A stretch of DNA of 64,000 nucleotides. It comes from Escherichia coli (GTDB lineage Bacteria > Pseudomonadota > Gammaproteobacteria > Enterobacterales > Enterobacteriaceae). The translations under genes were made by a program, and so were the position numbers. Positions 15,605 to 56,366 of this stretch are shown one piece after another. The notes below the pieces were generated by a model. The model worked only from the letters and a program-made list of their open reading frames with translations, did no database searches and was not told where the DNA came from. The stretch lies in the NCBI RefSeq assembly GCF_016026235.1, contig NZ_CP065613.1. One strand, 5' to 3'. Positions within the stretch are counted from its first letter, which is position 1; every line of letters begins with the position of its first letter.

Positions 15605-15717
15605 TTTTTATACCTGTTGTTTTGGATATTTATACATCCCAATAAAGCATGTATGCCATATCCATTTTATGATGTGTGAAAAGTTAGTTCAGGTAATAGT
15701 TTAATAATATTAGATTC

Positions 15718-16029: not shown

Positions 16030-16227
16030 ATTTTCCCTTACTGGTATATAACAGATTACATTGTTTAAATATCATATCCCGCAGTAGCTATACGTCCTGG
16101 TACATTGATCACAGTAATACAGTGATAAAGTTGTTCAACATCAGGGTGATTATTAAACGACTCGGCCATACGATAAACCAATCAGGACTCAACTCCTTGT
16201 TTTCAATGGCTCTTAAAAGGTGCAAAA

Positions 16228-16926: not shown

Positions 16927-16970
16927 AAGCAGACGCACAGAGTGCTGACATCACATTCTGTGCGTATGGT

Positions 16971-24114: not shown

Positions 24115-24250
24115 TTTCTTCTCCTGAACGCGAGGTGTTCCATAGCGTAGGCTTACTGATAACGGAGTGCAATCTTGCAAACCAGTATTACCCGCTCTTA
24201 AGCATCACGTGCTATGTTATTGACACACAAAAGCGTTGAGGAACAGTGAG

Positions 24251-24997
24251 ATGATCGTTTTAGTAACTGGAGCAACGGCAGGTTTTGGTGAATGCATTAC
24301 TCGTCGTTTTATTCAACAAGGGCATAAAGTTATCGCCACTGGCCGTCGCCAGGAGCGGTTGCAGGAGTTAAAAGACGAACTGGGAGATAATCTGTATATC
24401 GCCCAACTGGACGTTCGCAACCGCGCAGCTATTGAAGAGATGCTGGCATCGCTCCCTGCCGAGTGGTGCAATATTGATATCCTGGTAAATAATGCCGGCC
24501 TGGCGTTGGGCATGGAGCCTGCGCATAAAGCCAGCGTTGAAGACTGGGAAACGATGATTGATACCAACAACAAAGGCCTGGTATATATGACGCGCGCCGT
24601 CTTACCGGGTATGGTTGAACGTAATCATGGTCATATTATTAACATTGGCTCAACGGCAGGTAGCTGGCCGTATGCCGGTGGTAACGTTTACGGTGCGACG
24701 AAAGCGTTTGTTCGTCAGTTTAGCCTGAATCTGCGTACGGACCTGCATGGTACGGCGGTGCGCGTCACCGACATCGAACCGGGTCTGGTGGGTGGCACCG
24801 AGTTTTCCAATGTCCGCTTTAAAGGCGATGACGGTAAAGCGGAAAAAACCTATCAAAATACCGTTGCATTGACGCCAGAAGATGTCAGCGAAGCCGTTTG
24901 GTGGGTGTCAACGCTGCCTGCTCACGTCAATATCAATACCCTGGAAATGATGCCGGTTACCCAAAGCTATGCCGGACTGAATGTCCACCGTCAGTAA
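24251..24997 (+). CDS. ydfG: NADP-dependent 3-hydroxy acid dehydrogenase YdfG (SDR family)
   Basis: ORF 24236-24997; start MIVLVTGATAGFG (Rossmann TGxxxGxG) at 24251. Confidence 0.9.
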   Translation: MIVLVTGATAGFGECITRRFIQQGHKVIATGRRQERLQELKDELGDNLYIAQLDVRNRAAIEEMLASLPAEWCNIDILVNNAGLALGMEPAHKASVEDWETMIDTNNKGLVYMTRAVLPGMVERNHGHIINIGSTAGSWPYAGGNVYGATKAFVRQFSLNLRTDLHGTAVRVTDIEPGLVGGTEFSNVRFKGDDGKAEKTYQNTVALTPEDVSEAVWWVSTLPAHVNINTLEMMPVTQSYAGLNVHRQ

Positions 24998-25085
24998 TTT
25001 TTATACCCGGCGTAACTGCCGGGTTATTGCTTGTCACAAAAAAGTGGTAGACTCATGCAGTTAACTCACTCACAAGCAAGAACGA

Positions 25086-25772
25086 ATGACCGTCGAAACG
25101 CAACTTAATCCCACACAGCCTGTCAATCAGCAAATTTATCGTATCCTTCGTCGCGACATTGTCCATTGCCTGATTGCTCCAGGCACACCGTTGTCGGAAA
25201 AAGAAGTTTCTGTTCGTTTCAATGTGTCACGCCAGCCGGTTCGTGAAGCCTTTATTAAACTGGCGGAAAACGGCCTGATTCAAATTCGTCCACAGCGTGG
25301 CAGCTACGTCAACAAAATTTCCATGGCCCAGGTGCGCAACGGCAGTTTTATCCGTCAGGCCATTGAGTGCGCGGTGGCGCGTCGGGCGGCGAGCATGATT
25401 ACCGAAAGCCAGTGCTACCAACTGGAACAAAATCTTCACCAGCAACGCATTGCCATTGAGCGCAAGCAACTGGATGATTTTTTTGAACTTGATGACAACT
25501 TCCATCAACTCCTGACGCAGATTGCCGACTGTCAACTGGCGTGGGATACCATTGAGAACCTGAAAGCGACCGTTGATCGCGTGCGCTATATGAGTTTCGA
25601 CCATGTTTCTCCACCAGAAATGCTGTTACGCCAGCATCTTGATATTTTCTCTGCCCTGCAAAAACGTGATGGCGATGCGGTAGAACGTGCAATGACGCAA
25701 CATTTGCAGGAAATCAGCGAATCCGTGCGCCAGATCCGCCAGGAAAACAGCGACTGGTTTAGCGAAGAGTAA
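25086..25772 (+). CDS. rspR: GntR/FadR-family regulator RspR (YdfH)
   Basis: 228-aa ORF with N-terminal GntR HTH. Confidence 0.85.
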
Positions 25773-25780
25773 TTCATTTA

Positions 25781-25810
25781 CTCTCATCCCATCCGGGATG
25801 AGAGGCTTTT
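25781..25810 (+). terminator. Rho-independent terminator after rspR
   Basis: Hairpin CTCTCATCCC...GGGATGAGAG followed by TTTT. Confidence 0.55.
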
Positions 25811-25949
25811 CCCCCCGCCTTACGGCTCATGCATGCATCAAAAAAGATGTGAGCTTGATCAAAAACAAAAAATATTTCACTCGACAGGAGTATTTATATT
25901 GCGCCCGTTACGTGGGCTTCGACTGTAAATCAGAAAGGAGAAAACACCT

Positions 25950-26153
25950 ATGACGACCTACGATCGTAACCGTAACGCAATCACCACTGGCAGCCGTGTT
26001 ATGGTTAGCGGCACCGGTCACACTGGCAAGATCCTGTCGATTGATACTGAAGGTCTGACCGCTGAGCAAATCCGCCGCGGAAAAACCGTAGTTGTTGAAG
26101 GTTGTGAAGAGAAACTGGCACCTCTGGACCTGATTCGTCTCGGCATGAACTAA
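25950..26153 (+). CDS. ydfZ: Small protein YdfZ
   Basis: 67-aa [33 protein letters not shown]... Confidence 0.85.
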
Positions 26154-26160
26154 GTGTGTG

Positions 26161-26190
26161 AATGCCGCCGATGGCGGCATTGCTTTTTTT
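26161..26190. terminator. Bidirectional terminator between ydfZ and ydfI
   Basis: Hairpin AATGCCGCCGATGGCGGCATT followed by T7. Confidence 0.6.
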
Positions 26191-27649
26191 ACTTCACGGA
26201 ATATTTCGCCACGGTCGCTTTCGCGCCATGCGCTAATAAAGACAAGTACGCTTCCGTCACTTTTGCAGTAAACAAGCTATTGTCTGGCAAATCATCACCA
26301 AAGATTGCCTTAATCGCCAGCAATGACTGGACGCGCGCTTTCCCTTCGGCACTACTTTGTACAGCCTTCTGAATAACAGGTAACAGTGGGTCACTGATTT
26401 CTATCGGATTTCCCTGTTCATCAACACCACCGACATAACGCATCCAACCCGCGACGCCCAGCGCCAGCAGATCGAACTTGCTGTCATGCGCCAGATGCCA
26501 GCGAACAGAATCCAACATCCGCTGTGGCAATTTCTGGCTACCATCCATCGCAATCTGCCAGGTTCGATGACGTAACGCCGGGTTGCTATAGCGTTCAATT
26601 AATCGGTTAGCGTAATCTTGCAAATCAACGCCCTGCACTTTCAGCGTCGGCGCTTGTTCCTGCAACATCAAGCCATACGCCGCATAACGATAATGTTCAT
26701 CTTCCATGCAGTCATTAATGTGCTGATATCCAGCAAGATAACCCAAATACGCCAGGAATGAATGACTGCCGTTGAGCATGCGCAACTTCATCTCTTCATA
26801 AGGCAGCACATCACTAACCAGTTCGGCTCCCGCTTTTTCCCATTCTGGACGTCCGGCAACAAAGTTATCTTCTATTACCCACTGGCGGAAAGGTTCACAG
26901 GCAACGCCCGCAGGATCGCCCACACCGGTAAGTTGTTCGATTTTCGCCAGCGTATCCTCTGTCACTGCGGGCACAATACGGTCCACCATTGTTGATGGGA
27001 AAGTCACGTTATCTTCGATCCATTGTGCCAGTTTTTCATCAACGGCTTGCGCGTAGGAAGTGACAACGTCACGCATAACATGACCGTTTTCTGGCATGTT
27101 GTCACATGACATGACGGTAAATGCGGGAAGTCCTGCCGCTTTACGGCGAGCCAGCGCCTCAACAATCACCCCTGTTGCTGTTTTCGGCTGGTGGGGATTT
27201 TGCACGTCGGCAACGACCATCGGGTGATCGAGCATTAACTGTCCGGTCGCCGGAGAGTGGAAATACCCTTTTTCGGTGATTGTCAGAGAGACAATCGCGA
27301 TTTGTGGTTCACACATCGCAGCCAACACGGTTTCTAAGCCATCCATCTGTACGTGCAAGGCTTTTTTAACGACGCCAACGACGCGAGCCGTCCACGCATC
27401 GGCCGACATTTCCGCAACGGTATAAAGATTATCTTGCTGTTGTAAATCGGCAATTTGCTGTTCGCCACCGATTAAGTTGACCTCATAATATCCCCAGTCA
27501 CTGAAATGTTCTGTAGCAAGAATATCGGCATACACGCCCTGATGCGCACGGTGAAATGCACCAAAGCCTAAATGAACAATTCTTGGGGCCAGGTTATTAC
27601 GATCATAAACAGGGAGTGTCGCTTTTGCTGATAACAAATTATTTCCCAT
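26189..27649 (-). CDS. ydfI: Mannitol-dehydrogenase-family oxidoreductase YdfI
   Basis: 486-aa ORF, Rossmann-like N-terminus. Confidence 0.85.
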
Positions 27650-27738
27650 AACAATTCCTTAAATTTAAATATGGCAAGCTACATGTTTTGTTATATGAAT
27701 AAAAAATCCCCTCTCCGGTAAGAGAAGGGATTAAGGAT

Positions 27739-29022
27739 TTAAAGACTTCTGGAAGGTTGCGCAGCTCTTACAACACGCGGTTGATCTTCCGCAGCGTCTT
27801 CCAGCGCACTTAAATCACGGTCTTTCACTTCTGGCATTTTCAGCGCAGAGATTAAACCAATCACTGAATATGCCATGATCATAATGGCGATCGGATACCA
27901 GGATTCCGTCATGGTGCAGAAAATACCCGCCAGGATAGGACCAAAACCGGAAGCGATAAGACCACCAATTTCTTTAGAAATAGCCATCCGGGTAAAGCGG
28001 TTTTTACAGCCGAACATTTCTGCCATGGTAATGTTTTCCAGAGCAAATAATCCCAGCACCGCACAGTTATGAATCACAATCAGTGCAACCATAATGGTGC
28101 TCGGGGCATAGCTTTTATCTACGATGATAGAAAGCATTGGCCATGCCAGCACAATCGCGGAGGTATTCATAATAATATACGGGATCCGGCGACCAATTTT
28201 ATCGGATAACCAACCAAGGAACGGAATGGTCATAAAGCCGAGAATCGAACTAATCATCAATGCATCTGTTGGAATTGCTTTGTTAAACAATAACGTCTGC
28301 ACTAAATAGCCTGCAAGGAAAGTCTGAATTAACCCGGAGTTACCCGCCTGACCAAAACGCAGCCCTGTTGCCAGCCAGAAGGATTTGCTCTGGAACATGC
28401 TACCAGCAGGTGCAGGTTTTGCTGTCGGTTGGTTGCTGTCATTAACCTTCTCAAAGACCGGGCTTTCTTTCAGATTCATACGTAACCAGATAGCAAAGAC
28501 CATCACGACAACGCTCGCCAGGAACGGTATACGCCATCCCCACGCCAGCAGTTCCTCTTTACTGAGAATGAAGAACATAAAGGCCCAGATTGCCGTTGCG
28601 CTCAAGGTTCCGCAGTTAGTTCCCATAGCTACAAATGAGGAGATAATTCCGCGCTTACCTTTTGGCGCATATTCCGCCAGCATCGTACCGGCACCGGAAA
28701 TTTCCGCACCTGCACCCAATCCCTGAATAATACGCAGCGTCACCAGCAAAATGGGTGCAAAAACACCAATCTGTGCATAGGTCGGTAACACACCAATTAA
28801 GGTGGTACAGATCCCCATCATGGTGATGGTAATAAAGAGCACTTTTTTACGCCCTATTCTGTCGCCCATTTTGCCGAAAATAAATGCTCCGACAATACGC
28901 GCCACATAACCTGCACCGTAGGTTCCCATTGCCAAAATTAACGCCATTGCCGTTGATGATTCAGGAAAAAATATTTCATGAAACACTAACGCTGCGCCGA
29001 GCGAATATAACTGGAAATCCAT
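27739..29022 (-). CDS. ydfJ: MFS metabolite transporter YdfJ, apparently N-terminally truncated at the prophage junction
   Basis: 427-aa ORF starts inside the first TM helix with a stop two codons upstream in frame; ProP-like MFS proteins carry about 25 more N-terminal residues. Confidence 0.75.
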   Translation of the reverse strand: MDFQLYSLGAALVFHEIFFPESSTAMALILAMGTYGAGYVARIVGAFIFGKMGDRIGRKKVLFITITMMGICTTLIGVLPTYAQIGVFAPILLVTLRIIQGLGAGAEISGAGTMLAEYAPKGKRGIISSFVAMGTNCGTLSATAIWAFMFFILSKEELLAWGWRIPFLASVVVMVFAIWLRMNLKESPVFEKVNDSNQPTAKPAPAGSMFQSKSFWLATGLRFGQAGNSGLIQTFLAGYLVQTLLFNKAIPTDALMISSILGFMTIPFLGWLSDKIGRRIPYIIMNTSAIVLAWPMLSIIVDKSYAPSTIMVALIVIHNCAVLGLFALENITMAEMFGCKNRFTRMAISKEIGGLIASGFGPILAGIFCTMTESWYPIAIMIMAYSVIGLISALKMPEVKDRDLSALEDAAEDQPRVVRAAQPSRSL

Positions 29023-29626
29023 AATTCACAGGTGTTTTTTCCCATCCTGTGGTTTCCTTGGCGTTTTCTAGGTTTTTTCAGATAGTTGCATTTTTTAAAA
29101 AGCATCCTAAGTTCGATCTCAGTGTCTATCTGGGGCCTATTTCTGTCCCATATATGCCCCAAAAAAAACTCCCCAACAGATAAGTAGTTTTTTCATGGAT
29201 TTATGCGTAAAATCAAGAACGGCTGGAAATCATTCAATACTCACACTATCGAAAAATTTACCAGCCAACCGCAGCACGTTCTTGCATAAGGCGTGTCTGC
29301 GGTTTTTCAACTATTCAGATACATCACTCCCATCACATTCATTCCTCCGCATCAAAGGCATATAGGCTATATCACCTTGATATTTTTCTTTTTCAGATAA
29401 AAACTGTTATCTATGTATACTTTTAAACCCAATCCGTGTAGAGTCTCTGCATAAGATAGTTTACAGTTGCCGCTTCAGCTTGCGCCATAAACCGCCTGAT
29501 TTTTGCTGCCACCTGTTAGCATTCCTGTATACCTGAAACGACAATGTTTATCTACGAACTTTAAGAACACCCAAGATAAAAATTGTCAACTATATCATAT
29601 ATAACACATTACTAATTCGAGGCTAT

Positions 29627-29740
29627 ATGAACAGCATACTGATAATCACATCTCTCCTTATCATATTCAGCATTTTTAGTCATGCCCTAATAAAATTAGG
29701 GATTGGCATATCCAATAACCCAGACAAAACCGATGTATAA
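29627..29740 (+). CDS. Candidate small hydrophobic protein (37 aa) upstream of ydfK
   Basis: ATG with a GAGG Shine-Dalgarno 7 nt upstream; encodes [37 protein letters not shown] (one predicted TM helix). Confidence 0.3.
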
Positions 29741-29775
29741 GTCAACATATCCTGAATCAGACATACAATATCGCA

Positions 29776-30042
29776 ATGAAAATCAATAATATTTTAAGGA
29801 ATATCTTCATGAAATCAAAAGACACCCTAAAGTGGTTCCCTGCGCAGCTTCCTGAAGTAAGAATTATCCTAGGGGATGCTGTAGTGGAAGTAGCAAAACA
29901 GGGAAGACCTATCAATACCAGAACATTGCTTGATTACATTGAAGGAAACATAAAGAAAAAATCATGGCTGGATAACAAAGAATTATTACAAACAGCGATA
30001 TCAGTTCTTAAAGACAACCAAAATTTAAATGGTAAAATGTAA
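29776..30042 (+). CDS. ydfK: Prophage cold-shock-associated protein YdfK (alternative start at 29809 giving 77 aa)
   Basis: 88-aa ORF; internal MKSKDTLKWFPAQLPEVRIILGDAVVEVAK... matches YdfK/YnaE-type prophage proteins as recalled. Confidence 0.75.
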   Translation: MKINNILRNIFMKSKDTLKWFPAQLPEVRIILGDAVVEVAKQGRPINTRTLLDYIEGNIKKKSWLDNKELLQTAISVLKDNQNLNGKM

Positions 30043-30358
30043 TATAATAAACTTACTTTTTTATCATTTTTCCACTTTAACAACATTTTGCTCCACTTTT
30101 CCACGACCAAACAACTTGAAATCTGGTTAAAATAACACGCAACACTATTCTTCTTCCTTGAGTCCGCCCGGAACTCGAAAAACAAACCGAGTTAAAGCCA
30201 TTTTTCACAAAATCGATTTTGGGTCTCACCAAAATTACGGGGTTGCATACGCATTCGTTTATTTTCGAACGTGTACATACAAATATGCACAAAAATAATC
30301 ATAATTATTTTCTGAGATGCATTATGATATGAACACCAATTTCGTATAGAGTCTCACT

Positions 30359-30949
30359 ATGTCTCGAATTTTTGCTTACTGTCGGATATCAACGCTGGAT
30401 CAGACCACCGAAAATCAACGCCGGGAAATCGAAAGTGCAGGTTTTAAAATCAAACCTCAGCAAATAATCGAAGAACACATTAGCGGCTCAGCAGCAACCA
30501 GTGAGCGTCCTGGTTTTAACCGGTTGCTTGCTCGCCTGAAATGTGGTGATCAATTGATTGTGACAAAACTGGATCGCCTTGGTTGTAATGCAATGGATAT
30601 CAGGAAAACAGTGGAACAACTGACCGAAACAGGTATCAGAGTGCATTGCTTAGCATTGGGTGGCATTGACCTGACCAGTCCAACAGGAAAAATGATGATG
30701 CAAGTAATTTCAGCAGTCGCTGAATTTGAACGAGACCTTTTACTTGAACGCACTCATTCCGGGATAGTAAGAGCCCGCGGCGCAGGGAAACGTTTTGGTC
30801 GACCACCTGTGTTAAATGAAGAACAGAAACAGGTGGTATTCGAACGAATTAAGTCAGGTGTAAGTATAAGTGCCATTGCCCGGGAATTCAAAACCTCGCG
30901 GCAAACCATTTTAAGAGCCAAAGCAAAACTTCAGACACCTGACATATAA
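30359..30949 (+). CDS. pinQ: Serine-recombinase DNA invertase Pin (Gin/Hin/Cin family)
   Basis: 196-aa [23 protein letters not shown]... with catalytic Ser in the RIS motif and C-terminal HTH. Confidence 0.9.
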
Positions 30950-31046
30950 AAAATAATCTCGGTGTGAGATGCTTTACGTCTTCCAAGCCCCCTTCCTTGC
31001 CGTAAATGGAAAGATACATCTAATTATAGAATTTATATGTTTTACC

Positions 31047-31622
31047 CTACGGCAGTGCTGGCCATTCAATATCCTGTGCAGTTGACGTATCAACACGGTT
31101 CAGCAATACCCGATACTTTTTCCATGCTTCCAGCAACGAGATTTCTTCCTCCGTTGCAATTTCCAGATCTGCAGCATCCTGAAGCGGCGCAATATGCTCA
31201 CTGGCTACCTGCATCAGGTTGTTTTTTGTTTCTTCCGCCTCCCGGATCCGGAACAGTTTTTCTGCTTCCGTATCCTTCACCCAGGCTGTGCCGTTCCACT
31301 TCTGAAACTCCCCTTCCGGCGATAACCAGGTAACATTTTCCGGTAACGGACCGAGTTCAGAAATAAATAACGCGTCGCCGGAAGCCACGTCATAAACCGT
31401 TTTACCCCGATGATCTTCAACGAGATGCCACGATGACTCATCACTGTTGAAAACAGCCACGAAGCCAGCCGGAATATCTGGCGGTGCAATATCGGTACTG
31501 TTTGCTGGCAGACCTGTATGAGGCGGAATATATGCATCACCTTCACCAATAAATTCATTAGTTCCGGCCAGCAGATTATAAATTTTTATGGTCCGTGGTT
31601 GTTCACTCATTCTGAATGCCAT
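31047..31622 (-). CDS. tfaQ: Tail fiber assembly protein Tfa
   Basis: 191-aa ORF directly downstream of the stf C-terminal segment. Confidence 0.85.
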
Positions 31623-34600
31623 TATGCAAGCCTCACAATATAGTTAAATGCGATGTTTTTGACGGTGTTTTCCGCGTTACCAGCAGCGTTAACGGTGATG
31701 GTGTGTCCATGTGAACCAATCGCAACGGAGTGCGTATGAGCACCAATACCGACAGTATGCGCGTGTGCACCTGCAGATGCTGCTGTGCCGGACAGTGAGT
31801 GGCTATGATTACCATCTGTACTGGTATTAGCTAACCACCCCGTAGACATACCTACTGAGCCTTGTACACCCCAGGTATTTTGACCTGAGCTTGTATAACC
31901 ATATTGATAAGTATCTTTAAAAACACTGGGGTTAAATCGACGGCCATCTCTATGGCTGTGATTACCAGCTGCATTCGTGCTGCCACTTAAACTATGGGTA
32001 TGCGCACCAGTGTTATTCGTGGATTTAGTGCCGTAATCAAACGACGATGTGGTTTTCGTCCCCAAATCCGTACTGGATGCGCTGGCGCTGTGGGTATGCG
32101 ATTTAATGCCGTCCTATTCCTGAGACAATACGGCCCGACCACTGGTAGGTTTGCCCTTAATCGTCCAGCCACGCATATCAGGGATCACGCCTGACGGATA
32201 AGCCGCTGCAAGTTTCGGGTATGCAGATTTGTCAAAAGTCTGCCCCTGCATCAGGGCATAGCCAGACGGAACGGTATCTGATGGCCACGGGATTGGTGCA
32301 CCGACTGGATAAAACTCTGCAGGAGGATGAGCCGAGGTGTAAAGCTGCGCCCACGGCGACCAGTTTGCGTCGGTCGTATCCCGTCGTGAACGAATAAATG
32401 CCGGAGCATGAGCACCGCTTGTACCACTCCAGCCGATGAGTAACTCACCTTCGCCAACGGCTGTCATCCCTTTCAGGTGAATGATATTTCCATACGCTGT
32501 TGGATATCCGTTGTTATACACCTCGTATAACTCAAGACCTGTTGCCCCCTGCGTATTGTCTGTCAGCGCGGTTACCCGACCTTTTGAAGACAGATTAACT
32601 GATGATACTGCTGTTCCACCTGACGGTAACGCCCCGATCTCTGATGCCGTTGGCTTATTTCTGGAGTTATAGTCCCTTCGCCAGCCAGGTGAATAATCTG
32701 TTCCGTGATTAATATAGGTAAACTGGGCGTTAGTTGTTCCACCACCAGTGGAGGTGGTCGGTGTGGTAATGCGGATCGTCATCGCTGACTTTATCCCCAT
32801 TACTTCAATGACAGCTCCGGCGAGATGAATATTACCGCAGTCAGTATCAGTAATGATTTTATTATTGCCATAAGACCAGGAACCCTTGCACATCCAGTAG
32901 GGATGGTTAAATGCTCCCTGAGAATCCAGCCACTCGATAAACTGTGCAGTCGTCCAGTTTCCTGTTATTGTGCTTACTGACCCACCAAAGGCACGGCAGG
33001 CACCAATATTTTTCGTAAAGGTGTCTTTGCCAGGGATATCCGCACCGTTCTGATCTTTCTGCAGACGTTTCTCAGCATTGTCATAGGCTGTTTTTACTGC
33101 CTTTGGTGTCGCGGCAAGCGTTTCAGACGTGCTGTTGGTCGCGCTGCTTAGCTGGATTATCCCTTTCTGTGCTGTCGTTGCATCCTGTGCGGTGTATTTC
33201 CCGTTAGCCAGGTCATACGCGGCCTTAACGGCTTTTGGTGTTGCCGCCAGTGACTCGGAAGTGCTGTTAGTCGCACTACTGAGCTGTACTATCCCCTTTT
33301 TCGTCGTGCTCGCATCCTCAAGCGCCACAGCGGATGCAATATCCTCTGCCCGTTTTGCTGCTGTCTCGGCGCGCGTTGCTGCGGATTCTGCCGTACTCTT
33401 GCTCTGTGCTGCCGCCGTCGCACTGCCAGCAGCCTCTGTTGCCTTCGTGGATGCCGTCGTGGCGCTGCCCTTCGCTGCTGACGCTTGTCTGGTCGCCTCA
33501 TCTTTTGAAGCAGACGCCGATGAGGCCGATGACGCCGCCGAACTGGCGGACGATGCGGCAGCCGTTTTTGAGGATTCTGCGCTGGTTTCCGACGCTTTCG
33601 CGTTCGTTTCGGATGTCTTCGCTGCGGAAGCTGACCTCGCTGCTGCGCTGGCCTGTTCAGTGGCTTCGCCAGCCTTCGTTGTGGCTGTTGAAGCGGATGA
33701 TGCGGCGCTTTCTGCCGATTTTCCGGCGGCGATGGCACTGGCTGAGGCCTGCCCGGCACTTGTTGACGCGGCACTGGCAGACGACGCAGCCGCTGTTTTT
33801 GAGCCTGCCGCAGCTGAGGCGCTCTGTCCCGCTGCCGTCTCAGAAGACCTGGCGTTCGTCTCGGACGTTTTTGCCGCCTTCGCGGAATTTGCTGCCGCCG
33901 TTGCCGAGGAAGCTGCGCTACTGGCGCTCGAGGATGCGTTCGTTTCTGATGATTTTGCCGCCTCTTTTGAAGCCGACGCATCCTGGGCTGAGGTGGCAGC
34001 TTCTGACGCTTTCGTAGTCGCGGTGGATGCAGAAGTGGCTGCTGATTGTTGTGACGCTGCAGCATTCGTTTCTGACGTTTTCGCGGCACTGGCACTGGTA
34101 GCTGCCGCGCTTTTTGAGGACTCTGCAGCGGCAGCACTTTTTGATGCTTCAGTGGCCTTTGCTGATGCCGTTCCTGCGCTGGAAGACGCTGACTGAGCCG
34201 ACGACGCGGCCTGTCCGGCTGACGTGCTGGCTGCGCGTGCTAAGCCTGCAGCATCAGTTGCATGGGTTGCCGCCTCACGGGCTGATGTGCCGGCATCGCT
34301 GGCTGACTTCTTCGCGGCTGCTGTGTTCTGTGCCACCGCGGACGCGTTACGCGCCACCTCTTCCACCATCAGTTCAAAACGTCGCAGTGCCTCCGGACGG
34401 GCATCATCCTCCGTCATGGCACCGAGAAAATCATTCAGCGTACCGGGTTGAGAATCTTCATACACGGTGATGGTCCCGGCATGTGACGGCGGGAATCCTT
34501 CCACCAACAGAATAACGCTGTACTGACCGTACTCAACGTCCATGCTGTAACGCCCGGCTTCATCCGGATTTTCTGAGGCCAGCGTGTTCACCACCACCGC

Positions 34601-45037: not shown

Positions 45038-45669
45038 TTAACCTGCGGCGCTGACAGCCACCGTAGCCACTGCCACAAAATCGCCGTCAGAAGTCATGCC
45101 CACAATGCTGACACTGCCCTGCTTCACGCCTTTCACCGTGGCAGTCTGTGGATCTGTCGAATGCACACTGATCGCTTTGTCACTGGCTCCGTCAGGTTTT
45201 ACTGTAAAGGTCAGCGTGGTGGTTGCTCCCGCTTTGACACTGGCAGATGCCGGTGCCATCGTCAGCCCGGTAACGCCCACGATTTCAGTGCCTTCCTCTG
45301 CCAGATACGGAAAACATCAACAGTACCGTTGGGATATTTGATACGAAAAGCGCAGACTTCACCGGAGTCGAACAACTGAACCAGTTTTTTCTGCCCGCTG
45401 TCCCCCGGACGCCAGGCCAGCGTCGCCGAAGTATCACCGACTGATTTCTGCCCCTGGGTTGTCGTTTTCCAGTCTGCATCTTCATCATCGAGATAAGTGT
45501 CATCTTCTGCATCAGCGGTCATTTCGCCAGGTTGCAGATCCTTCACCATCGCAAGACGCAGCCAGTCAGTGTCCGATAAAGGGTTCGCAAACGCATCGCC
45601 CTTGCCGGTATACATCCAGAACGTCGTTCCCGCACCTTTCGTTTTTGCCAGTGGATTTGGTGTGGTCAT
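45038..45669 (-). pseudogene. Major tail protein V, disrupted by an out-of-frame internal deletion
   Basis: N-terminal part ([18 protein letters not shown]...VDVFR, then 14 out-of-frame codons and stop at 45262) and C-terminal Ig-like part (...[25 protein letters not shown]...) lie in different frames; about 30 codons present in lambda V are absent. Confidence 0.65.
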
Positions 45670-47345: not shown

Positions 47346-49057
47346 TTACGCCGTACATTTCACCAGACCGCGGTGATCAACTGGCGCGACACCGGCGTCA
47401 ATACGCACTTTCGTTGTCACGCCATCCACACTGAAGCCCTCCATCTGATCAATATATGGCGTATCCACACCGTTGAGATAAGCCACTTCAATCGTATCGG
47501 AGCCTTTTGACGCAGCCAAGTAGAAGGTGGTCTGGCTGTTATCATCAAGACGAGGCTCTGCAATAACGGTCGCAAAATCTTTCACCGGGTTAATAATACC
47601 GGCGTTAATGTCAGCCCCCTTGACACTTGAGGAGCGAATGACCTGGTTAGCAACAGACTCCATCGCCGTCGGTACCAGTACGAACGCAGGACGAATATTC
47701 AGATGACGCTCCCCCTCTTTCTGAACGCGCATCAACTGGCGGGCTTTATCCAGCGATGCCACGTCCATTGCAGCGCTCTCCAGTACGTTTGCATGTTTCG
47801 CTTTATCGAACAGACTTACATTATCTGTGGAGATTTTCGGGTTAGACGTCAGAATGGCATAAACCAGATCGGCAATAGTGGATTTCGCCGCACGGCCCAG
47901 TTTCATCGGGACATCGGTCAGCATATTCAGATCATCATTGATAATGGCCTGACGGGTGATACTGAACAGCTCGCCATAGGTCGCCAGTGCAATAGTGGCC
48001 TGTTTATCTCCGGTGGTGACGTATTTATATTCCGCCCCTTCACGCACCTGACGCAGAGCACTGAAGCCCCCCATACCCACACGATGGGCAATTTTAAAAT
48101 CAGACAACTGACCTTTCCGCGTCCACTGTTCATAGGTTTCAGGGGCATCTTCCCAGCCCTGCAGAATGGCTTTGTTCGCAACATCCAGCAGAATATTACC
48201 GAAGTCAGACGTACTGTGTGTGAACGCCGCACCGACCATCTGCATCGGGTTATAACCGGAAACCCCAATACCCCGTTCAGTCAGTGACATACGGGCATAT
48301 TCACGCAGGGTCATCCCGTTGTAGACATTATCACGTTCGGTTTTTTCAAATCCGGCACGCGCCATCAGCGCCTGGCGGATCCCGTCCCCCACAAAATTAC
48401 CGTTACCGGCATAAATATGAGCCGGGGTATTTTTATTGGATGGCGTGGACTCGCGCCCCATCTCGTTCAACAGCTTTTCACGGGCCTGCTCCAGCGAACA
48501 TTCAGGATCGGCAAGACACTGAGCCTGCAGCGTCTGATAACGCCCGCCAAACATGGCAAACAGATCATTAATACCGTTTACACGCGCTTTTTGCTCTGCC
48601 AGTACCTGCGCACGGATGCTGTTTTCATCCACCACGGGTGCTGCTGCCTGCACTGGCGTCCGGGAGGCTTCAGATTCATTATCCTGTACGCGTGGAGCAC
48701 TGTTGCGTGGCGGAGTAATCATGTTTCGAATGGATTCCGGCATCTTTTTAAATTCCTCTGTACGTTTTGACTGAATACATGCCATTGCCTTAACGGCTGG
48801 CGTTACCTGATCAGCAAATCCATGTGCCAGACATTCGGCACCGGACATCCAGGTCTCATCCGCCAGCATGGCAGCAATTTCATCGGTGGTTTTCCCGGTT
48901 TTCTGTGCATAAGCGGGTAACAGAACCGCCTCAACTTTATCGAGCAGGTCGGCATAGGTGCGCATGTCCTCCGCATCACCGCCCGTAAAGCCAAATGGTT
49001 TATGAATCATCATGAAGGTGTTTTCCGGCATAATGACCGGGTTTCCTACCATCGCAA
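47346..49057 (-). CDS. Prohead protease - major capsid protein fusion (HK97-like), 5'-truncated by the IS600-like insertion
   Basis: 575-aa ORF whose first codons (TTG at 49071-49073) lie inside the IS terminal repeat; N-terminal part ClpP-like, C-terminal about 330 aa capsid-like. Confidence 0.65.
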
Positions 49058-49100
49058 TGAGGTGTACTGGCAATAGCGGACACTACCATTTGTTCTTTTT

Positions 49101-49919
49101 TTAAGCAGCCATCTGATGATATTTTTCCCTGAAGGCTGCCGGGGAGATATTCCCCAGACGAGAGTGACGACGCTGACGATTGTAGAAAATCTCAATGTAT
49201 TCCCGTATTACTGAGATGGCTTCATCCCGGTTATTAAAACGATAGTGGCTCAGGCTCTCATTTTTCAGCGTTCCCCAGAAGCTTTCCATCGGAGCGTTGT
49301 CGTAACAGTTACCTTTACGCGACATTGATGTTTTCAGACCAAACTGCTCCTGTATGACCCGGTAATCGTATGCGCAGTACTGTGAACCTCGATCAGAGTG
49401 GTGGATTAGCCCGGCAGGTGGGCGCTGGCTCCTGAGCGCCATAAACAGGGCTTTACCTGTCAGCTCTTTTGTCATGCGCTCTCCCATGGCGTAGCCGACA
49501 ATTTCGCACGTATAAACATCTTTGATGCCAGCGAGGTACAACCATCCCTCCTGTGTGGCAACATACGTCAGGTCCGCCACCCAGACCTGATTTGGTGCTG
49601 TAGGAGCGAACGTCTGGTTCAGCAGATTTGGCGCAACTGGCAGATTGTGGTTCGGGTTCGTAGTCGCTCTGAACTTGCGTTTCTGCTTACAGCGTAGCCT
49701 TAGCTCCTTACGAAGACGTGCCAGTCGGTCACGACCAACGATGATGCCATTCTCTGCCAGCTCCGTCTGGAGCCGCCGGGTTCCATATGTTTCGCGAGTG
49801 CGGATATGTGCCACCTTAATCTCCAGTTTTAGCCGCTCATCACTTTGTTTTCTGTCTGAGGGTTCATGCTGTACCCAGTTGTAATAACCGCTCCTGGATA
49901 CACCAAATACCTGACACAT
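49101..49919 (-). CDS. IS3-family transposase OrfB (DDE integrase domain); normally expressed as an OrfAB fusion
   Basis: 272-aa ORF with ...HHSDRGSQY... and ...GNCYDNAPMESFW... motifs. Confidence 0.85.
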   Translation of the reverse strand: MCQVFGVSRSGYYNWVQHEPSDRKQSDERLKLEIKVAHIRTRETYGTRRLQTELAENGIIVGRDRLARLRKELRLRCKQKRKFRATTNPNHNLPVAPNLLNQTFAPTAPNQVWVADLTYVATQEGWLYLAGIKDVYTCEIVGYAMGERMTKELTGKALFMALRSQRPPAGLIHHSDRGSQYCAYDYRVIQEQFGLKTSMSRKGNCYDNAPMESFWGTLKNESLSHYRFNNRDEAISVIREYIEIFYNRQRRHSRLGNISPAAFREKYHQMAA

Positions 49920-49954
49920 CGCTTCAATGGGAAATTGTTGTCGCCATTGTTCGA

Positions 49955-50257
49955 TTAACGCGTATTTTTCAGCGACTCCTGTGCAAAATACGCTGTTGCT
50001 TTTTTTAATATATCTCGCTCAAGGCGAGCTTCATTTAACGCCTTACGCAGTTGCAGAATTTCAGATTCCAGTTCAGCCACCGTGCGGGAGCCAGGAGTAC
50101 CGAGCCCTTTTCTGGCGGCGGTAACCCATTGTCCTAAAGTGCCTTCAGGAAGGGATAATCGGGAAGCGCCTTCACTGATCGAAAGTTGATTTTCAAGAAC
50201 CGTTCTGACAGCTTCGGCTTTGAACTCTTTAGAGTAACGTTGGGTTTTTCTGCTCAT
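49955..50257 (-). CDS. IS3-family transposase OrfA (HTH, leucine zipper)
   Basis: 100-aa ORF MSRKTQRYSKEFKAEAVR...; ends ...LKKATAYFAQESLKNTR with the A7G run (plus 49998-50005) at the LKK codons. Confidence 0.85.
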   Translation of the reverse strand: MSRKTQRYSKEFKAEAVRTVLENQLSISEGASRLSLPEGTLGQWVTAARKGLGTPGSRTVAELESEILQLRKALNEARLERDILKKATAYFAQESLKNTR

Positions 50258-50439
50258 TATTAGCTCCTTCTGATGCCATTCTATTTCAGGAAGGAGTGTC
50301 CGTTAAACTCAGGCTACCTCAGTTTTCCCTGACTCTTACGCCTTTATAAACAAACCAGATACGTAATTTCCCTCCATGGCTTTCCACGCCTGTCGGATAT
50401 TTCATTTCAATTTCTCTCATTAGTTAGTGTGGCTTTTAG

Positions 50440-50691
50440 TCAAGTAAGATGACGTCTTGGTCTTGCTGATGCCTGGCGCTCAATCCAGCGATCAATTTCT
50501 TCCAGGTTGTAAAAGCATGGACTGTTATCCCATGGCATACCGTCATGAGCGACATGCTTATATTCCCTTCCTTCCATAAACGATTTTTCCCGGGCCTTTT
50601 TTAACGTACCTTTTTTTATTCCTTTCAGCGCAATTAACTGCTCTTCGGATACCCATTTGCCGGGAGAGACAATCATGATTACTTCGCTCAT
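50440..50691 (-). CDS. Putative prophage excisionase (Xis-like)
   Basis: 83-aa ORF with a GREY motif as in lambda Xis; adjacent to the recombination-module remnant. Confidence 0.55.
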   Translation of the reverse strand: MSEVIMIVSPGKWVSEEQLIALKGIKKGTLKKAREKSFMEGREYKHVAHDGMPWDNSPCFYNLEEIDRWIERQASARPRRHLT

Positions 50692-50763
50692 CGATTTCTT
50701 TATCTCTTACATCAGACGAGCGCCGGTTGCAGAATACCAGTCACAACCGGCGACAGTTGAACA

Positions 50764-50904
50764 TTAAGAATCAGCCTGACTCGGGATCAGTTTTTGCCAG
50801 ATAACTGAAACGTATTTTGCCTGGTAACGGGCGTCATCAAGTGCATTATGGCGCTCACCTTCGAATGGAATAGCCGTTCTGGCATCGAAGTCTATGGCTT
50901 TCCC
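50764..50904 (-). pseudogene. 3'-terminal remnant (about 46 codons) of a DEDDh-type 3'-5' exonuclease gene, truncated by the IS10-like element
   Basis: Minus-strand frame open from the IS end to TAA at 50764-50766 reads ...PIDFDARTAIPFEGERHNALDDARYQAKYVSVIWQKLIPSQADS*; H-x-A-L-x-D-A resembles the Exo III motif. Confidence 0.4.
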
Positions 50905-52198
50905 CTGAGGAATCCCCAGAAAACAAGACAGGCATAGTGAGATGTGATCTAATTGATTGTGCTAACAATTTCAAGGAGATCACCACTATGCCTGCACGTT
51001 CATTATGCCAAAATTTCCTTAACAACATACTGGCCCCTTTGCATCTTTACCGTCAAAAATCACTGATTGACGCAACTAATGCTGTAATAAATGGCGCTTC
51101 CCTCACACTTACCAGTATCGGGCGTCATTTAACCGGTACGGCATCAGTTAAAAACAAAATAAAGCGGGTGGATCGACTGTTGGGGAATCGACATTTGCAA
51201 AATGAGGTTTCCACCATTTTTCAGCGAATTACCCAAAAGATTACGCGGGGAATGTCTCGTGTTGTGATACTCATTGACTGGAGTGCTTATCATGCCTCTC
51301 GTTTTCAGCTTTTGCGGGCAAGCCTGGCATGTGACGGGCGTTCTTTACCGTTGATGAGTTGTGTCGTTCCATCATCACAGACAGCGAATGCAGATGTACA
51401 TGAGCGTTTTCTGGAATCGCTTGCTGAGTGCTTTTCCCCCGGGACTGATGTCATTGTTATTACAGATGCCGGTTTTCAGGGGCGATGGTTCCAACAGCTC
51501 CGCTCCCGTGGCTGGACCTATATTTGCCGGGTACTGGGCAATCATTATTACAATGTTGGTAATGGCTGGGAAAAGGTGTCGGACTCAGGCACAAAAGCAT
51601 CAACGACAGCAATTTATTTAGGTGAAGGCCTGCTGGGTCGAGATAAAAATGCACAACATGAAGGGCATTTTTATCTTTATAAAAGTAAGCCTAAAGGTCG
51701 TAGATTTAAACGCTCGAAGGAAAGAGCAACCAGACCATCGGTGACGGCTAAAGCTCGTACTGCCGGGAAATCACCATGGTTTATTTTCACAAACAGTACT
51801 GAGTTCTCGCCAAAACAGGTAATGAAATTATACAGCCGTAGAATGCAAATTGAGCAAAATTTCAGGGATGAAAAAAATCCTCGCTGGGGATTTGGACTAC
51901 GGTTTGGTGCCAGTCATTCATCCGGGCGGGTCACGGTATTGAGTCTGATCGCAACATTAGCCAGTATCATTATGTGGTTAAGCGGTTTCAGCCTGGAAAA
52001 CAAAGGGATACATCATAAATATCAGGCAAATACAGTGAAGCACAGGCGAGTCATCTCGTTATTAAAACTGGCGGAGAATGTGATTCGACATTCTCCACTC
52101 ATACTAAACACACTGTCACTTGACGCAGGGCTGAAAGTTCTACAGCAACGGTATACCAATATGATAATGGTTTACTAAATTTTCTGGGGATCCCTCAG
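50905..52198 (+). mobile_element. IS4-family (IS10-like) insertion sequence with 18-bp terminal inverted repeats CTGAGG(A/G)ATCCCCAGAAA
   Basis: Left end 50905-50922 CTGAGGAATCCCCAGAAA; right end 52181-52198 reverse-complements to CTGAGGGATCCCCAGAAA (17/18); single transposase ORF. Confidence 0.75.
50988..52178 (+). CDS. IS4-family DDE transposase (IS10-like); start at MPARSL preceded by AAGGAG
   Basis: ORF 50937-52178; YREK signature (Y-x2-R-x3-E-x6-K in YSRRMQIEQNFRDEK); segments resembling the IS10 transposase as recalled (IKRVDRLLGNRHL, ITDAGF, YQANTV). Confidence 0.8.
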   Translation: MPARSLCQNFLNNILAPLHLYRQKSLIDATNAVINGASLTLTSIGRHLTGTASVKNKIKRVDRLLGNRHLQNEVSTIFQRITQKITRGMSRVVILIDWSAYHASRFQLLRASLACDGRSLPLMSCVVPSSQTANADVHERFLESLAECFSPGTDVIVITDAGFQGRWFQQLRSRGWTYICRVLGNHYYNVGNGWEKVSDSGTKASTTAIYLGEGLLGRDKNAQHEGHFYLYKSKPKGRRFKRSKERATRPSVTAKARTAGKSPWFIFTNSTEFSPKQVMKLYSRRMQIEQNFRDEKNPRWGFGLRFGASHSSGRVTVLSLIATLASIIMWLSGFSLENKGIHHKYQANTVKHRRVISLLKLAENVIRHSPLILNTLSLDAGLKVLQQRYTNMIMVY

Positions 52199-52824
52199 CA
52201 GTCAGCCCCGCTCTCTTTCGCTTTTTCCAGTCGTTCATCAATGCGATCGGCAACAATCACATTTTTAACGTTATAGACGCCTTTTAATACCTGAACGATC
52301 GTCAGGCCGATTGGACCGGCACCGTAAACCAGAACGGTATCATTTTCAGTCGGTTGACCATGGCCGGTTACGTTAGCCGCAATGGTAAAAGGTTCGATCA
52401 TCACCGCATATTGATCGGCCACTGCTTCAGGAATTTTCCACGCATTTTTTGCCGGAACCACGGCATATTCACTGAAACCACCGTCAGCGTGCACACCTAA
52501 TACAGCCAGTGTCGTACAAACGTTCGGTTTACCTATAGAGCACGGATAGCAATGCCCACAGCTGACCACCGGATCGACAGCAACACGTTCACCGACTCTG
52601 GCGCTTTCCACACCTTCACCCACCGCATCAATGACGCCAAAGAATTCATGTCCAATGACGCGCGGATATTTCGCAAAAGGATTATGCCCACGATAAATAT
52701 GGCTATCTGAACCACAAATTCCGGCAAGTTTCACTTTTACTCGTACTTCACCCGCTGACGGGGTGGGTATTTCACGTTCGACAATCGCCAGTTGATTCGG
52801 TTTTTCAATTAATATGCTTTTCAT
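52195..52824 (-). pseudogene. rspB: Starvation-sensing zinc-dependent dehydrogenase RspB, 3'-truncated at the IS10-like junction (about 208 of about 339 codons)
   Basis: ORF 52195-52848; N-terminus MKSILIEKPNQLAIVEREIPTPSAGEVRVKV and GHE/Cys zinc-ADH motifs present; reading frame runs into the IS repeat and stops. Confidence 0.75.
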
Positions 52825-52835
52825 TATCTTACTCC

Positions 52836-54050
52836 TTACCAGTTCCACAGCGTGCCATCTTCCAGACGTGCGACTGGTAGATAAGCAGGTTCATAGGGAT
52901 ATTTCGCCGCCAGCTTTTCATCGAATTCGATGCCAAGACCCGGTTTGTCTCCCGGATGCATATAGCCGTTATCGAAAGTCCAGTTGTGCGGGAAGACTTC
53001 GAGCATTTGTTCGGAATAACCCATGTATTCCTGGACACCGAAATTGGGGACCCACAGATCAAAGTGCAGCGCTGCAGCCATGCAGACTGGTGACAAATCG
53101 GAAGGACCGTGTGAGCCAGTACGTACCTGATACAGCGAAGCAAAATCGGCAATCCGGCGCATACCGGTAATTCCGCCTGCATGGGTCAGCGTGGTGCGGA
53201 TATAATCGATGAGTTGCTCTTCAATCAGTTGTTTGCAGTCCCAGATGCTGTTGAAGACTTCACCCACTGCGATGGGTGTGACGGTATGTTGGCGAATGAG
53301 ACGGAAGCATTCCTGGTTTTCCGCAGGCGTCGGGTCTTCCATCCAGAACATGCGATAATCTTCAATGCTTTTACCAAAGCGCGCCGCTTCAATAGGCGTT
53401 AAGCGATGGTGCATGTCATGCAGCAAATGTTCATTAAAACCAAACTTGTTACGTACCGCGTCAAACAATTTCGGCATGAAATCGAGGTATTTCTCCGTCG
53501 ACCACAGCTGCTCTTCCGGCCACTGTCCTTTGGTTGCGGGTTCATAAGCCAGACCTTTACCTTTCGACATGCCGTAGGTGGTTTTCATACCAGGGATTCC
53601 GCACTGCACGCGGATGGCTTTGAATCCCAGCTCCTGATGACGGGCATAATCATCCAGAGCTTCATCAATACTGTGACCGGTGGTATGGCAATAAACCATC
53701 ACCCCTTCACGAGACGCGCCGCCGAGTAACTGGTAAAGCGGCATGTTGGCAGCTTTGGCTTTAATATCCCACAGCGCCATATCAACCGCTGAAATGGCCG
53801 ACATCGTAACCGGACCGCGACGCCAGTAAGCACCTTTATAGAAAAACTGCCAGATATCTTCGATACGGTGCGCATCGCGACCAATAAGCTGCGGACAAAG
53901 GTGATCCTGCAAATAAGAGGCCACGGAAAGCTCACGTCCATTGAGGGTGGCATCCCCAAGGCCCGTAATACCGTCCTCAGTGGTGATTTTTAATGTGACG
54001 AAATTACGCCCCGGACAGGTAACAAAAACTTCAGCCTTTACGATCTTCAT
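52836..54050 (-). CDS. rspA: Starvation-sensing protein RspA (enolase-superfamily mannonate dehydratase-like)
   Basis: ORF 52836-54083; start [17 protein letters not shown] at 54050 (404 aa). Confidence 0.9.
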
Positions 54051-54255
54051 GTTCGATTCCTTGCATCGCTTGTCGTGATGCATGAAATCTACGCAACTGA
54101 ACTACTACCATACAAGTATGAAGATCGAAAAAAGCCGGAGTGATCACAAAAAAAGGCGTATATTTGCGCTGTGAATGGTTGACAAAAGATGAAATAGAAT
54201 ACCTTTTGTCAGCTGACGCTTCCTCGTATCTTATTGATAAAATGGATTTATGTTC

Positions 54256-54582
54256 CTACGTGCGCCCCCAGCCCGCAACAATGATCAACATGCCGCAAAG
54301 CGCAATCAACGCACCCGTCCAGTCATAAAGTGTCAGTTTCACGCCATCCACAACGCGCAGCCACATCAACGCCGTGCAGACATAAACGCCACCATAAGCC
54401 GCGTAAACACGCCCACTCGCCGCAGGATGCAACGTTAACAACCAGACAAACAGCGCCAGTGAAATCCCCGCCGGAAGCAACAGCCAGATACTGGCGTTTC
54501 GTTTTAACCACAACCAGGGCAGAAAGCATCCAATAATTTCACACAGCGCAGTAGCAAAAAATAGTAACGTTGTTTTAATCAT
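54256..54582 (-). CDS. ynfA: UPF0060 membrane protein YnfA
   Basis: ORF 54256-54591; 108-aa hydrophobic protein from [20 protein letters not shown]. Confidence 0.85.
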
Positions 54583-54716
54583 CTTTGTCACTTATTGACA
54601 TCATGTATAGTTATAGGGCGACATAATATCATCAATATAAACACCCTCCTGGTACGTTTTGCGTCCGCAGTGGATGGTGTAGAATCACCTTTAATCATTC
54701 ACACAGGGAATGAATT

Positions 54717-55058
54717 ATGAAAATCACTCTCAGCAAACGAATCGGCCTGCTCGCTTTTCTGCTGCCTTGCGCACTGGCATTGAGCACAACTGTTCATGCC
54801 GAAACTAACAAACTGGTGATTGAGTCTGGCGACAGTGCACAAAGCCGCCAGCACGCCGCTATGGAAAAAGAGCAATGGAATGACACGCGCAATCTGCGCC
54901 AGAAAGTGAATAAACGCACTGAAAAAGAGTGGGATAAAGCCGACGCCGCTTTTGATAACCGCGATAAATGTGAGCAAAGCGCCAACATCAATGCCTACTG
55001 GGAGCCAAATACTTTGCGCTGCCTGGACCGTCGAACTGGCCGCGTTATTACCCCCTAA
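54717..55058 (+). CDS. ynfB: Secreted protein YnfB (UPF0482)
   Basis: 113-aa ORF with signal peptide. Confidence 0.85.
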
Positions 55059-55092
55059 CCTGTTATTGATTTAAGGAATGTAAGGACACGTT

Positions 55093-55653
55093 ATGCCAAG
55101 CGCCCACAGTGTTAAGCTACGCCCGCTGGAGCGTGAAGATTTACGCTATGTACATCAACTCGACAATAACGCCAGTGTGATGCGTTACTGGTTTGAGGAA
55201 CCCTACGAAGCCTTTGTTGAACTCTCTGATCTGTATGATAAGCATATTCACGATCAGAGCGAACGACGCTTTGTGGTGGAATGTGACGGCGAAAAAGCCG
55301 GTCTGGTGGAGTTGGTGGAAATTAACCATGTACATCGCCGCGCAGAATTTCAGATAATTATCTCCCCGGAGTATCAGGGGAAAGGTCTGGCAACCCGTGC
55401 CGCCAAATTAGCAATGGACTATGGCTTCACCGTTCTCAATCTCTATAAGCTGTATCTGATCGTTGATAAAGAGAATGAAAAAGCGATTCACATTTACCGC
55501 AAGCTTGGCTTTACGGTTGAAGGTGAATTGATGCATGAGTTCTTTATTAATGGTCAATATCGTAATGCCATTCGCATGTGTATATTCCAGCATCAGTATC
55601 TGGCAGAGCACAAAACACCGGGTCAGACTCTCCTGAAGCCGACCGCACAATAG
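55093..55653 (+). CDS. speG: Spermidine N1-acetyltransferase SpeG (GNAT)
   Basis: 186-aa ORF; GNAT fold. Confidence 0.9.
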
Positions 55654-55655
55654 CA

Positions 55656-56366
55656 TTAATAATAATCGATCGTATTTTTGATGGTGTAAACCCGTTCGAC
55701 GGCGGGTTTTACTCCTTCATCAACAATGATCAGCTGACAGTCCACCGGATTGGCGTGACTGTCATATTCACAGCTCTGTTTTACATTACCAACTCGTTGA
55801 TTATTCAGTAAAGTAACCGCTGTGTAATCTAATTTTTTGATCGGGTCCGTTGATGGCGTGGCGCTGACAGATAATGTTTTGTCGTTACTTTTCGTGGTTT
55901 TACCCAGTGGATAACCCTGATCATCATAGCGATATTCCATCTGCATTTGTTTGCTGCTGGCTTTAATCACGAAGCCATTATCATCGGTTTCCCAACTCAC
56001 CCCGGCAGAAGGTAATTCTGCTAGCTGGCATTTTCCCTGTAAACGTACTCTCTTCTCCAGCGTCTCGGCATCACGGTAATAATTGGCGTCCAGTACCAGA
56101 GCGACCACGGTATTATTTTCCAGATCCAGTAATTCGAGTGAATCAAAACAGCCTTCTTCCGACAAAGTCCCCGAAACACGTTTCGTCACTTCACCTTGCT
56201 CATCCATTAATGTCTGAGTGAAATCTTTTACCGGACCACGCAGCGGATCAAAATCGAATTCATTAGAGAAACTGGCCATCTCAGGAGTAAATGAAAGTGT
56301 TACCTCTGTGCGGTCACATCCTGTGAGTAATATCGCGAGTAAGCATGGCAGTAATTTGTATTTCAC
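55656..56366 (-). CDS. ynfC: Lipoprotein YnfC (UPF0257); GTG start
   Basis: ORF 55656-56402; lipobox LLTGC near the N-terminus when started at GTG 56364-56366. Confidence 0.8.
   Translation of the reverse strand: MKYKLLPCLLAILLTGCDRTEVTLSFTPEMASFSNEFDFDPLRGPVKDFTQTLMDEQGEVTKRVSGTLSEEGCFDSLELLDLENNTVVALVLDANYYRDAETLEKRVRLQGKCQLAELPSAGVSWETDDNGFVIKASSKQMQMEYRYDDQGYPLGKTTKSNDKTLSVSATPSTDPIKKLDYTAVTLLNNQRVGNVKQSCEYDSHANPVDCQLIIVDEGVKPAVERVYTIKNTIDYY

Follow-up and report, generated by a model that had tools for sequence, protein, structure and literature searches.

The stretch of Escherichia coli DNA analysed here, 64,000 nucleotides long and referred to below as the window, carries an insertion sequence at 50905-52198 that joins prophage genes on its left to an rspB gene without its 3' end on its right. 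How this junction was formed is the question addressed here. According to the original prediction, a deletion at the insertion sequence itself had removed the prophage attachment end, the integrase gene and the end of rspB.

The prophage sits at the ydfJ/rspB locus, like Qin in E. coli K-12. Identity to K-12 is 98.8% at window 22734-31818, a stretch extending from dcp past ydfJ into the ydfJ-side end of the prophage with ydfK, pinQ and tfaQ, and rightward from 52199 the sequence aligns with rspB-rspA-ynfA and beyond in both K-12 and AR_0077. Directly next to the insertion sequence lie 626 bp of the rspB 5' part (52199-52824, minus strand). The alignments to K-12 and AR_0077 show that the last 394 bp of the gene are absent, in agreement with the predicted 3' truncation, while rspA is intact in the window.

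On the left side, the insertion sequence is bordered by the remnant of an exonuclease gene, as had also been predicted. This remnant (50764-50904, minus strand) comprises the last 141 bp, i.e. 46 codons and the stop, of a prophage gene for an 823-aa protein, and its translation, GKAIDF...SQADS, is the C-terminus of the exonuclease in assembly GCA_901482675.2 (L004). Next to it is an intact, inverted excisionase gene (xis; DUF1233; 50440-50691, minus strand; Pfam PF06806, E=1.6e-31), which is annotated as 'excisionase family protein' in E. coli genomes. It is followed by the first 84 bp of the integrase gene int (50322-50405, minus strand), which is cut by IS600. This element of the IS3 family (49058-50321, minus strand, 1264 bp) is 99.9% identical to annotated copies and adjoins a ClpP-protease/major-capsid fusion gene from which the first 316 bp are absent (47346-49057, minus strand). 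The left flank, initially described as prophage interior, is instead an inverted prophage end, the one proximal to int.

The element at the junction is ISEc60

Over its entire length of 1294 bp, the sequence at 50905-52198 is 100% identical to at least 11 copies annotated as 'IS4-like element ISEc60 family transposase'. The element is intact, lies on the plus strand and belongs to the IS10 group of the IS4 family. Its terminal inverted repeats, CTGAGGAATCCCCAGAAAA and CTGAGGGATCCCCAGAAAA, are located at 50905-50923 (IRL) and 52180-52198 (IRR); they are 19 bp long and identical at 18 positions, close to the 17/18 match that had been read before. In the 64-kb window the inverted-repeat pattern has just these two matches, with 0 expected from 100 shuffles. 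The transposase gene (50988-52178, plus strand) starts with ATG and encodes 396 aa. Its product matches Pfam DDE_Tnp_1 (PF01609; E=1.8e-20, 74 bits at a cut-off of 23) and NCBIfam NF033591, 'IS4 family transposase' (360.5 bits at a cut-off of 152), and the Y-2-R-3-E-6-K signature, YSRRMQIEQNFRDEK, begins at residue 282, which confirms the predicted protein length and YREK motif. The DDE/YREK transposase, the inverted repeats and the identity to a named element all place 50905-52198 in the IS4 family. The element is ISEc60, an intact and catalogued insertion sequence, and not a new, diverged one; of the predicted diverged IS10-like element, the kinship holds at the level of the IS10 group, but the divergence does not.

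ISEc60 is related to IS10 and is not IS10 itself. The ISEc60 transposase aligns with that of IS10A over 93% of its length with 36% identity, both proteins having the DDE and YREK residues, and in the outermost 13 bp per end the two elements differ by one base (CTGAGGAATCCCC and CTGAGGGATCCCC in ISEc60, CTGAAGAATCCCC and CTGAAGGATCCCC in IS10A). In both, a GATC (Dam) site is confined to the IRR. IS10 is 1329 bp long and generates 9-bp duplications at the target NGCTNAGCN. ISEc60, unlike IS10, measures 1294 bp and generates 10-bp duplications at G...C targets. An iso-IS10 would be expected to combine high transposase identity with a 9-bp duplication, as opposed to the 36% and 10 bp found here. 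With the transposase of ISSfl1, that of ISEc60 shares 52% identity.

The leader of ISEc60 (50905-51024) is computed to fold into a long hairpin of -38.9 kcal/mol, whose arms include 50929-50939 and 50984-50994 and in which the AAGGAG ribosome-binding site and the ATG would be buried. Fold-back inhibition in IS10 resembles such a hairpin over the ribosome-binding site and start codon. GATC occurs at positions 42, 74 and 1285 of the insertion sequence, which puts a Dam site in the IRR and none in the IRL. The leader hairpin and the layout of the Dam sites suggest, by analogy, an IS10-style control of transposase expression. As both ends and the full transposase gene are kept, this ISEc60 copy may still be mobile.

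Copies 100% identical to the window element are present on chromosomes and large (~290-kb) plasmids of E. coli CFSAN029787, RMDEC332/364 and VL46 as well as in FDAARGOS_943, which carries ISEc60 in 38 places. Copies on plasmids of Shigella dysenteriae are 99.8% identical to 50905-52198, those on plasmids of E. albertii 98.8-99.5%. A literature search for the name 'ISEc60' returned incidental mentions only. Compared with annotated ISEc60, the window element is no different; just its flanks, without a 10-bp duplication, are unusual.

To define the target duplication of ISEc60, other copies were sampled through the transposase protein (GCA_031665585.1 and GCA_031665325.1; loci L029-L038). All seven of the simple insertions in the sample are bordered by a perfect direct repeat of 10 bp: GGGAATTCTC, GGAAATTCTC, GGGATAATTC, GCGAGTTCCC, GCTTTGACCC and GGGATCACTC, together with GGGCTGACTG at rspB. 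A 10-bp duplication is also found at the rspB site of FDAARGOS_943 and at the exonuclease site. The targets of the sampled copies usually have the form G-N8-C in a GC-flanked context. A 9-bp duplication with an extra terminal G on the element was considered and rejected, as the base beside the IRR at rspB is C and the repeat is 10 bp long everywhere. Two of the sampled copies (L034 and L036) are also without duplications. At another locus (L030/L031) two ISEc60 copies are arranged in tandem, 10 bp apart (GGGATTTACC) and flanked by GGGATTTTCC, which suggests that one target was used repeatedly.

At the window copy, no such direct repeat is present. Its left flank, TGGCTTTCCC (50895-50904), is one duplication copy from a second ISEc60 insertion, in the exonuclease gene, and does not match the right flank, CAGTCAGCCC (52199-52208), which is one copy of the original ISEc60 target duplication in rspB. 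The earlier reading of unduplicated 9-bp flanks was thus right in that the flanks differ but not in the size of the duplication, which is 10 bp. Moreover, the right flank given there, CAGCAGTCA, was out of register by 3 nt and took in the terminal CAG of the insertion sequence; the true right flank begins at 52199 as CAGTCAGCC(C). A duplication at the 50905-52198 copy together with an intact rspB elsewhere, named in the original prediction as contrary evidence, was not found in the genome. We attribute the missing duplication to the copy being a recombinant from an inversion, so that it is no argument against membership in ISEc60. By itself, the absence of a target duplication does not indicate a deletion at the insertion sequence concerned.

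An inverted prophage end and its reciprocal junction

Where the prophage at this locus is intact (E. coli C, AR_0077), the order is exonuclease, xis and int, then rspB, with the three prophage genes transcribed towards rspB. Window positions 50322-50904, a block of 583 bp with the int start, xis and the exonuclease 3' end, align in reverse to AR_0077 (L020 28480-29063). The capsid and rspB flanks align forward to AR_0077, and only this block is reversed; it is likewise inverted relative to E. coli C and to L004. A deletion adjacent to an insertion sequence keeps the new flank in its native orientation, which is not what is observed. Since the 583-bp left block is inverted relative to rspB, a simple deletion at ISEc60 cannot explain the junction. 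Judged from the sequences, the ISEc60 junction is the product of an inversion between two inverted copies and not of a deletion. The losses that had been predicted are real, as the attachment end, the integrase gene (except for 84 bp) and the rspB 3' end are all absent, but the deletion did not make the junction, whose flank is inverted and whose reciprocal counterpart survives in another assembly (L046/L048, see below).

The window is identical to part of GCA_900449985.1, and relatives were searched with the exact 209-aa truncated RspB as the query, which occurs in 31 blocks. In L004, ISEc60 interrupts rspB at the identical position and points the same way, with one SNP. This copy has GGGCTGACTG on either side, and beyond it come, in native order, the 3' part of rspB, int, xis and an intact gene for the 823-aa exonuclease. 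The closest complete E. coli genome is FDAARGOS_943, which is 99.9% identical over the flanking chromosome and in which the prophage site at the ydfJ/rspB locus is empty. Here ISEc60 (NZ_CP065615.1, L050 44938-46231) occupies the identical rspB target with the duplication CAGTCAGCCC, in the opposite orientation, suggesting either a hot spot that was struck independently or a flip in place. Because the rspB site was perhaps hit repeatedly, L004 is taken as a representative of the ancestral state and not necessarily as the literal ancestor.

For the reciprocal junction a protein could be foretold, consisting of exonuclease residues 1-780 and a 19-aa tail, TEGSPENLVNHYHIGIPLL, read from the IRR of ISEc60. 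This 799-aa protein was found exactly, in two assemblies. In GCA_014155105.1 (L046/L048), dicB, ydfD and the exonuclease 5' part are followed by an inverted ISEc60, the rspB 3' part, ynfP and the 3' part of int; after IS600 the order continues with the int start, xis and the exonuclease 3' end, a further ISEc60, the rspB 5' part, rspA and ynfA. GGGAAAGCCA is located on both exonuclease halves and GGGCTGACTG on both rspB halves, so that each ISEc60 copy has one duplication from the exonuclease site and one from the rspB site. Both hallmarks of an inversion between inverted copies, the reciprocal junction and the mixed duplications, are therefore present in this assembly. Its two ISEc60 copies and the window copy do not differ in sequence, and IS600 in int has GTT on both sides, a 3-bp duplication. 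L048 15426-22400 corresponds to window 49058-56032 with 100% identity over 6975 bp and no mismatch; from the right junction of IS600 rightward the two match, and L048, a very close relative, differs only left of IS600. This independent agreement makes a mis-assembly of the window unlikely. As L046/L048 has the junction between ISEc60 and the exonuclease 3' end alongside int, ynfP and the rspB 3' end, this junction predates the loss of these parts.

An assembly with both ISEc60 copies before the inversion was not found. The window junction was absent from the complete E. coli genomes of the collection, where no place covers at least 80% of the query. A lookup of the intact 823-aa exonuclease (735 blocks) gave the canonical arrangement in all matches listed. 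The corresponding lookup of the C-terminal 82-aa fragment of RspB was non-specific, with 552 blocks that mostly contain frameshifted rspB; the source genome of the window is not listed, a weak indication that it lacks the rspB 3' end altogether.

Proposed history and competing explanations

Very probably, the window copy of ISEc60 is a recombinant that arose by inversion between two copies, and the losses are due to a separate deletion of 26 kb ending at IS600. ISEc60 would have inserted into rspB with the 10-bp duplication CAGTCAGCCC, a state that is seen in a relative. A second ISEc60, oriented the other way, would then have entered the Qin-like prophage at a distance of 2.36 kb, within the exonuclease gene, giving the duplication GGGAAAGCCA. 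By recombining, these inverted copies would flip the segment from the exonuclease 3' end through xis, int, attL and ynfP to the rspB 3' end; the IRL of the rspB copy would thereby come to adjoin the 3' end of the exonuclease gene, the structure that is observed. IS600 would have inserted into int with the 3-bp duplication GTT, which is also seen. Finally, a deletion of ~26.2 kb from the IS600 in int to the capsid gene, with observed endpoints and a presumed mechanism, would have taken the capsid 5' end, the portal, terminase, lysis, regulatory and replication genes and the exonuclease 5' part, and with them the second ISEc60, most of int, attL, ynfP and the rspB 3' end.

The original explanation, a single deletion adjacent to ISEc60 in which attL, int and the end of rspB were lost and the insertion sequence came to abut the exonuclease gene, is in line with the lack of a flank duplication and with the absence of most of int, attL and the rspB 3' end from the window. 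Such a deletion would, however, place the exonuclease 5' part in native orientation beside the insertion sequence, where the inverted 3' end, xis and the int start are found, and the same junction is present in L046/L048, where int, ynfP and the rspB 3' end are retained. The explanation could only be rescued by an earlier IS600 inversion of the prophage interior, which is seen in no assembly, and we consider it highly improbable. The related order of events, with an IS600-mediated inversion first and an ISEc60-adjacent deletion afterwards, was rejected, as L046/L048 contains the ISEc60-bounded inversion with one IS600. It is scarcely credible that the fragment with the exonuclease 3' end, xis and the int start stems from another lambdoid prophage, brought in through a distant ISEc60/IS600 inversion or translocation. 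The int-xis-exonuclease module is common, with up to six places per E. coli genome, but in L046/L048 the fragment is contiguous across the GTT-flanked IS600 with the remainder of int, with ynfP and with the 3' part of rspB, and the resident prophage contains the exonuclease 5' part along with the 10-bp duplication that matches. Given this contiguity, the fragment is local and derives from the resident prophage.

A closer competitor concerns the inversion itself, which the ISEc60 transposase could have produced in a single step, with the rspB copy attacking the exonuclease target on the same molecule or on the sister chromatid. Intramolecular replicative inversion predicts the structure of L046, in which each copy has one old and one new duplication; the target is merely 2.36 kb off, and the L046 copies and the window copy are identical. 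On the other hand, the IS10 and IS50 relatives of ISEc60 move by cut-and-paste, a non-replicative route in which the element is not duplicated, and with many identical ISEc60 per lineage (38 in FDAARGOS_943) the identity of the copies is uninformative and an independent insertion with subsequent recombination would come about easily. Both routes end in an identical sequence. We regard this route as unlikely, and the same applies to its combination with an rspB 10-bp site acting as a hot spot that is hit in both orientations. If true, it would mean that an IS10-group cut-and-paste element with an unusually strict choice of target is capable of duplicative inversion. Homologous recombination between two independently inserted copies is preferred as the mechanism of the inversion, because the IS10 and IS50 relatives are non-replicative and dozens of identical ISEc60 copies are available; we infer it on these grounds. 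The joint on the exonuclease side lies exactly at the terminus of the insertion sequence, and the outward GGGAAAGCCA resembles ISEc60 targets in that it starts with G and ends with C. By its sequence, this joint looks transposase-made under either inversion route.

The IS600 deletion and the state of the locus

The endpoint of the ~26-kb deletion is IS600 (49058-50321) and not ISEc60. On one side of IS600 lies the capsid gene without its 5' end, on the other the first 84 bp of int. The 3-bp flanks of the element, CAA and GTT, differ: the GTT side is kept and the opposite side (CAA) adjoins the capsid gene. The alignment of the capsid gene to AR_0077 (L020) runs to position 5362, within a capsid CDS at 3651-5678. 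The window has no counterpart of AR_0077 5363-28479 (23.1 kb) and 29064-30840 (1.8 kb), and together with the second ISEc60 the total loss amounts to about 26.2 kb. This deletion, by which int, attL and the rspB 3' end disappeared, is a later event than the inversion and separate from it.

In GCA_001907535.1 the junction between the truncated capsid gene and IS600 is present (L023), and a contig of 22,834 bp (L049) ends in the junction between the exonuclease 5' part and ISEc60. By collinearity with AR_0077, this contig would start within about 40 bp of the capsid breakpoint; the capsid-IS600 junction and the undeleted interior occur together in this assembly. A predicted 108-aa fusion protein of the capsid N-terminal fragment and IS600 was looked up and is not on record. 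Most likely the deletion occurred by recombination of the IS600 in int with a second, direct IS600 in the capsid gene; a precursor with two IS600 copies is suggested by contig ends and contig-length arithmetic only.

To judge from the sequence, rspB is inactivated and has become a pseudogene, and the prophage is a fixed, Qin-like tail-gene remnant. The window prophage retains its tail genes and xis, and it is predicted to be unable to excise or propagate because int (but for 84 bp), attL and the replication, lysis and packaging genes are missing. In K-12 Qin, which is integrated at the same locus, int is pseudogenised, the neighbouring rspB is intact and the head and tail genes are gone. In the window, by comparison, the tail genes are kept, the early, lysis and packaging genes are lost and rspB is disrupted.

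Within the remaining tail region, at ~45296-45311, a tail protein gene has a deletion of ~85 bp relative to AR_0077, with a 16-bp overlap at the breakpoint. The gene is the homologue of one with a 247-aa product (L022; AR_0077 L020 1231-1974) and is split into ORFs of 135 and 80 aa, a further decay of the prophage remnant.

All components found here, ISEc60, IS600, a Qin-like prophage and IS-mediated inversion and deletion, are known, and the locus is a case of ordinary IS-driven prophage decay. It shares with the rearrangements between insertion sequences in Shigella and enteroinvasive E. coli the hybrid copies, mismatched duplications, reciprocal junction, gene inactivation and prophage decay, and is of the same kind, except that here the intermediates survive in public assemblies. 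The locus thus provides a worked example of IS-driven decay by insertion, inversion and deletion that can be rebuilt from such assemblies. For annotation, the element is to be named ISEc60, rspB a pseudogene and the prophage a fixed, non-excisable Qin-like remnant, with little significance beyond this. The junctions could serve as lineage markers in an E. coli or Shigella-like clade rich in ISEc60 and IS600.

Outside the junction, the window and FDAARGOS_943 are ~99.95% identical, with IS-associated gaps at window 14241-17244 and ~21206. In FDAARGOS_943, IS1 copies are located in the PTS/EamA region and an element of the IS5 family lies near ydeI, and the window is uninterrupted at these places, which points to recent turnover of insertion sequences in this clade.
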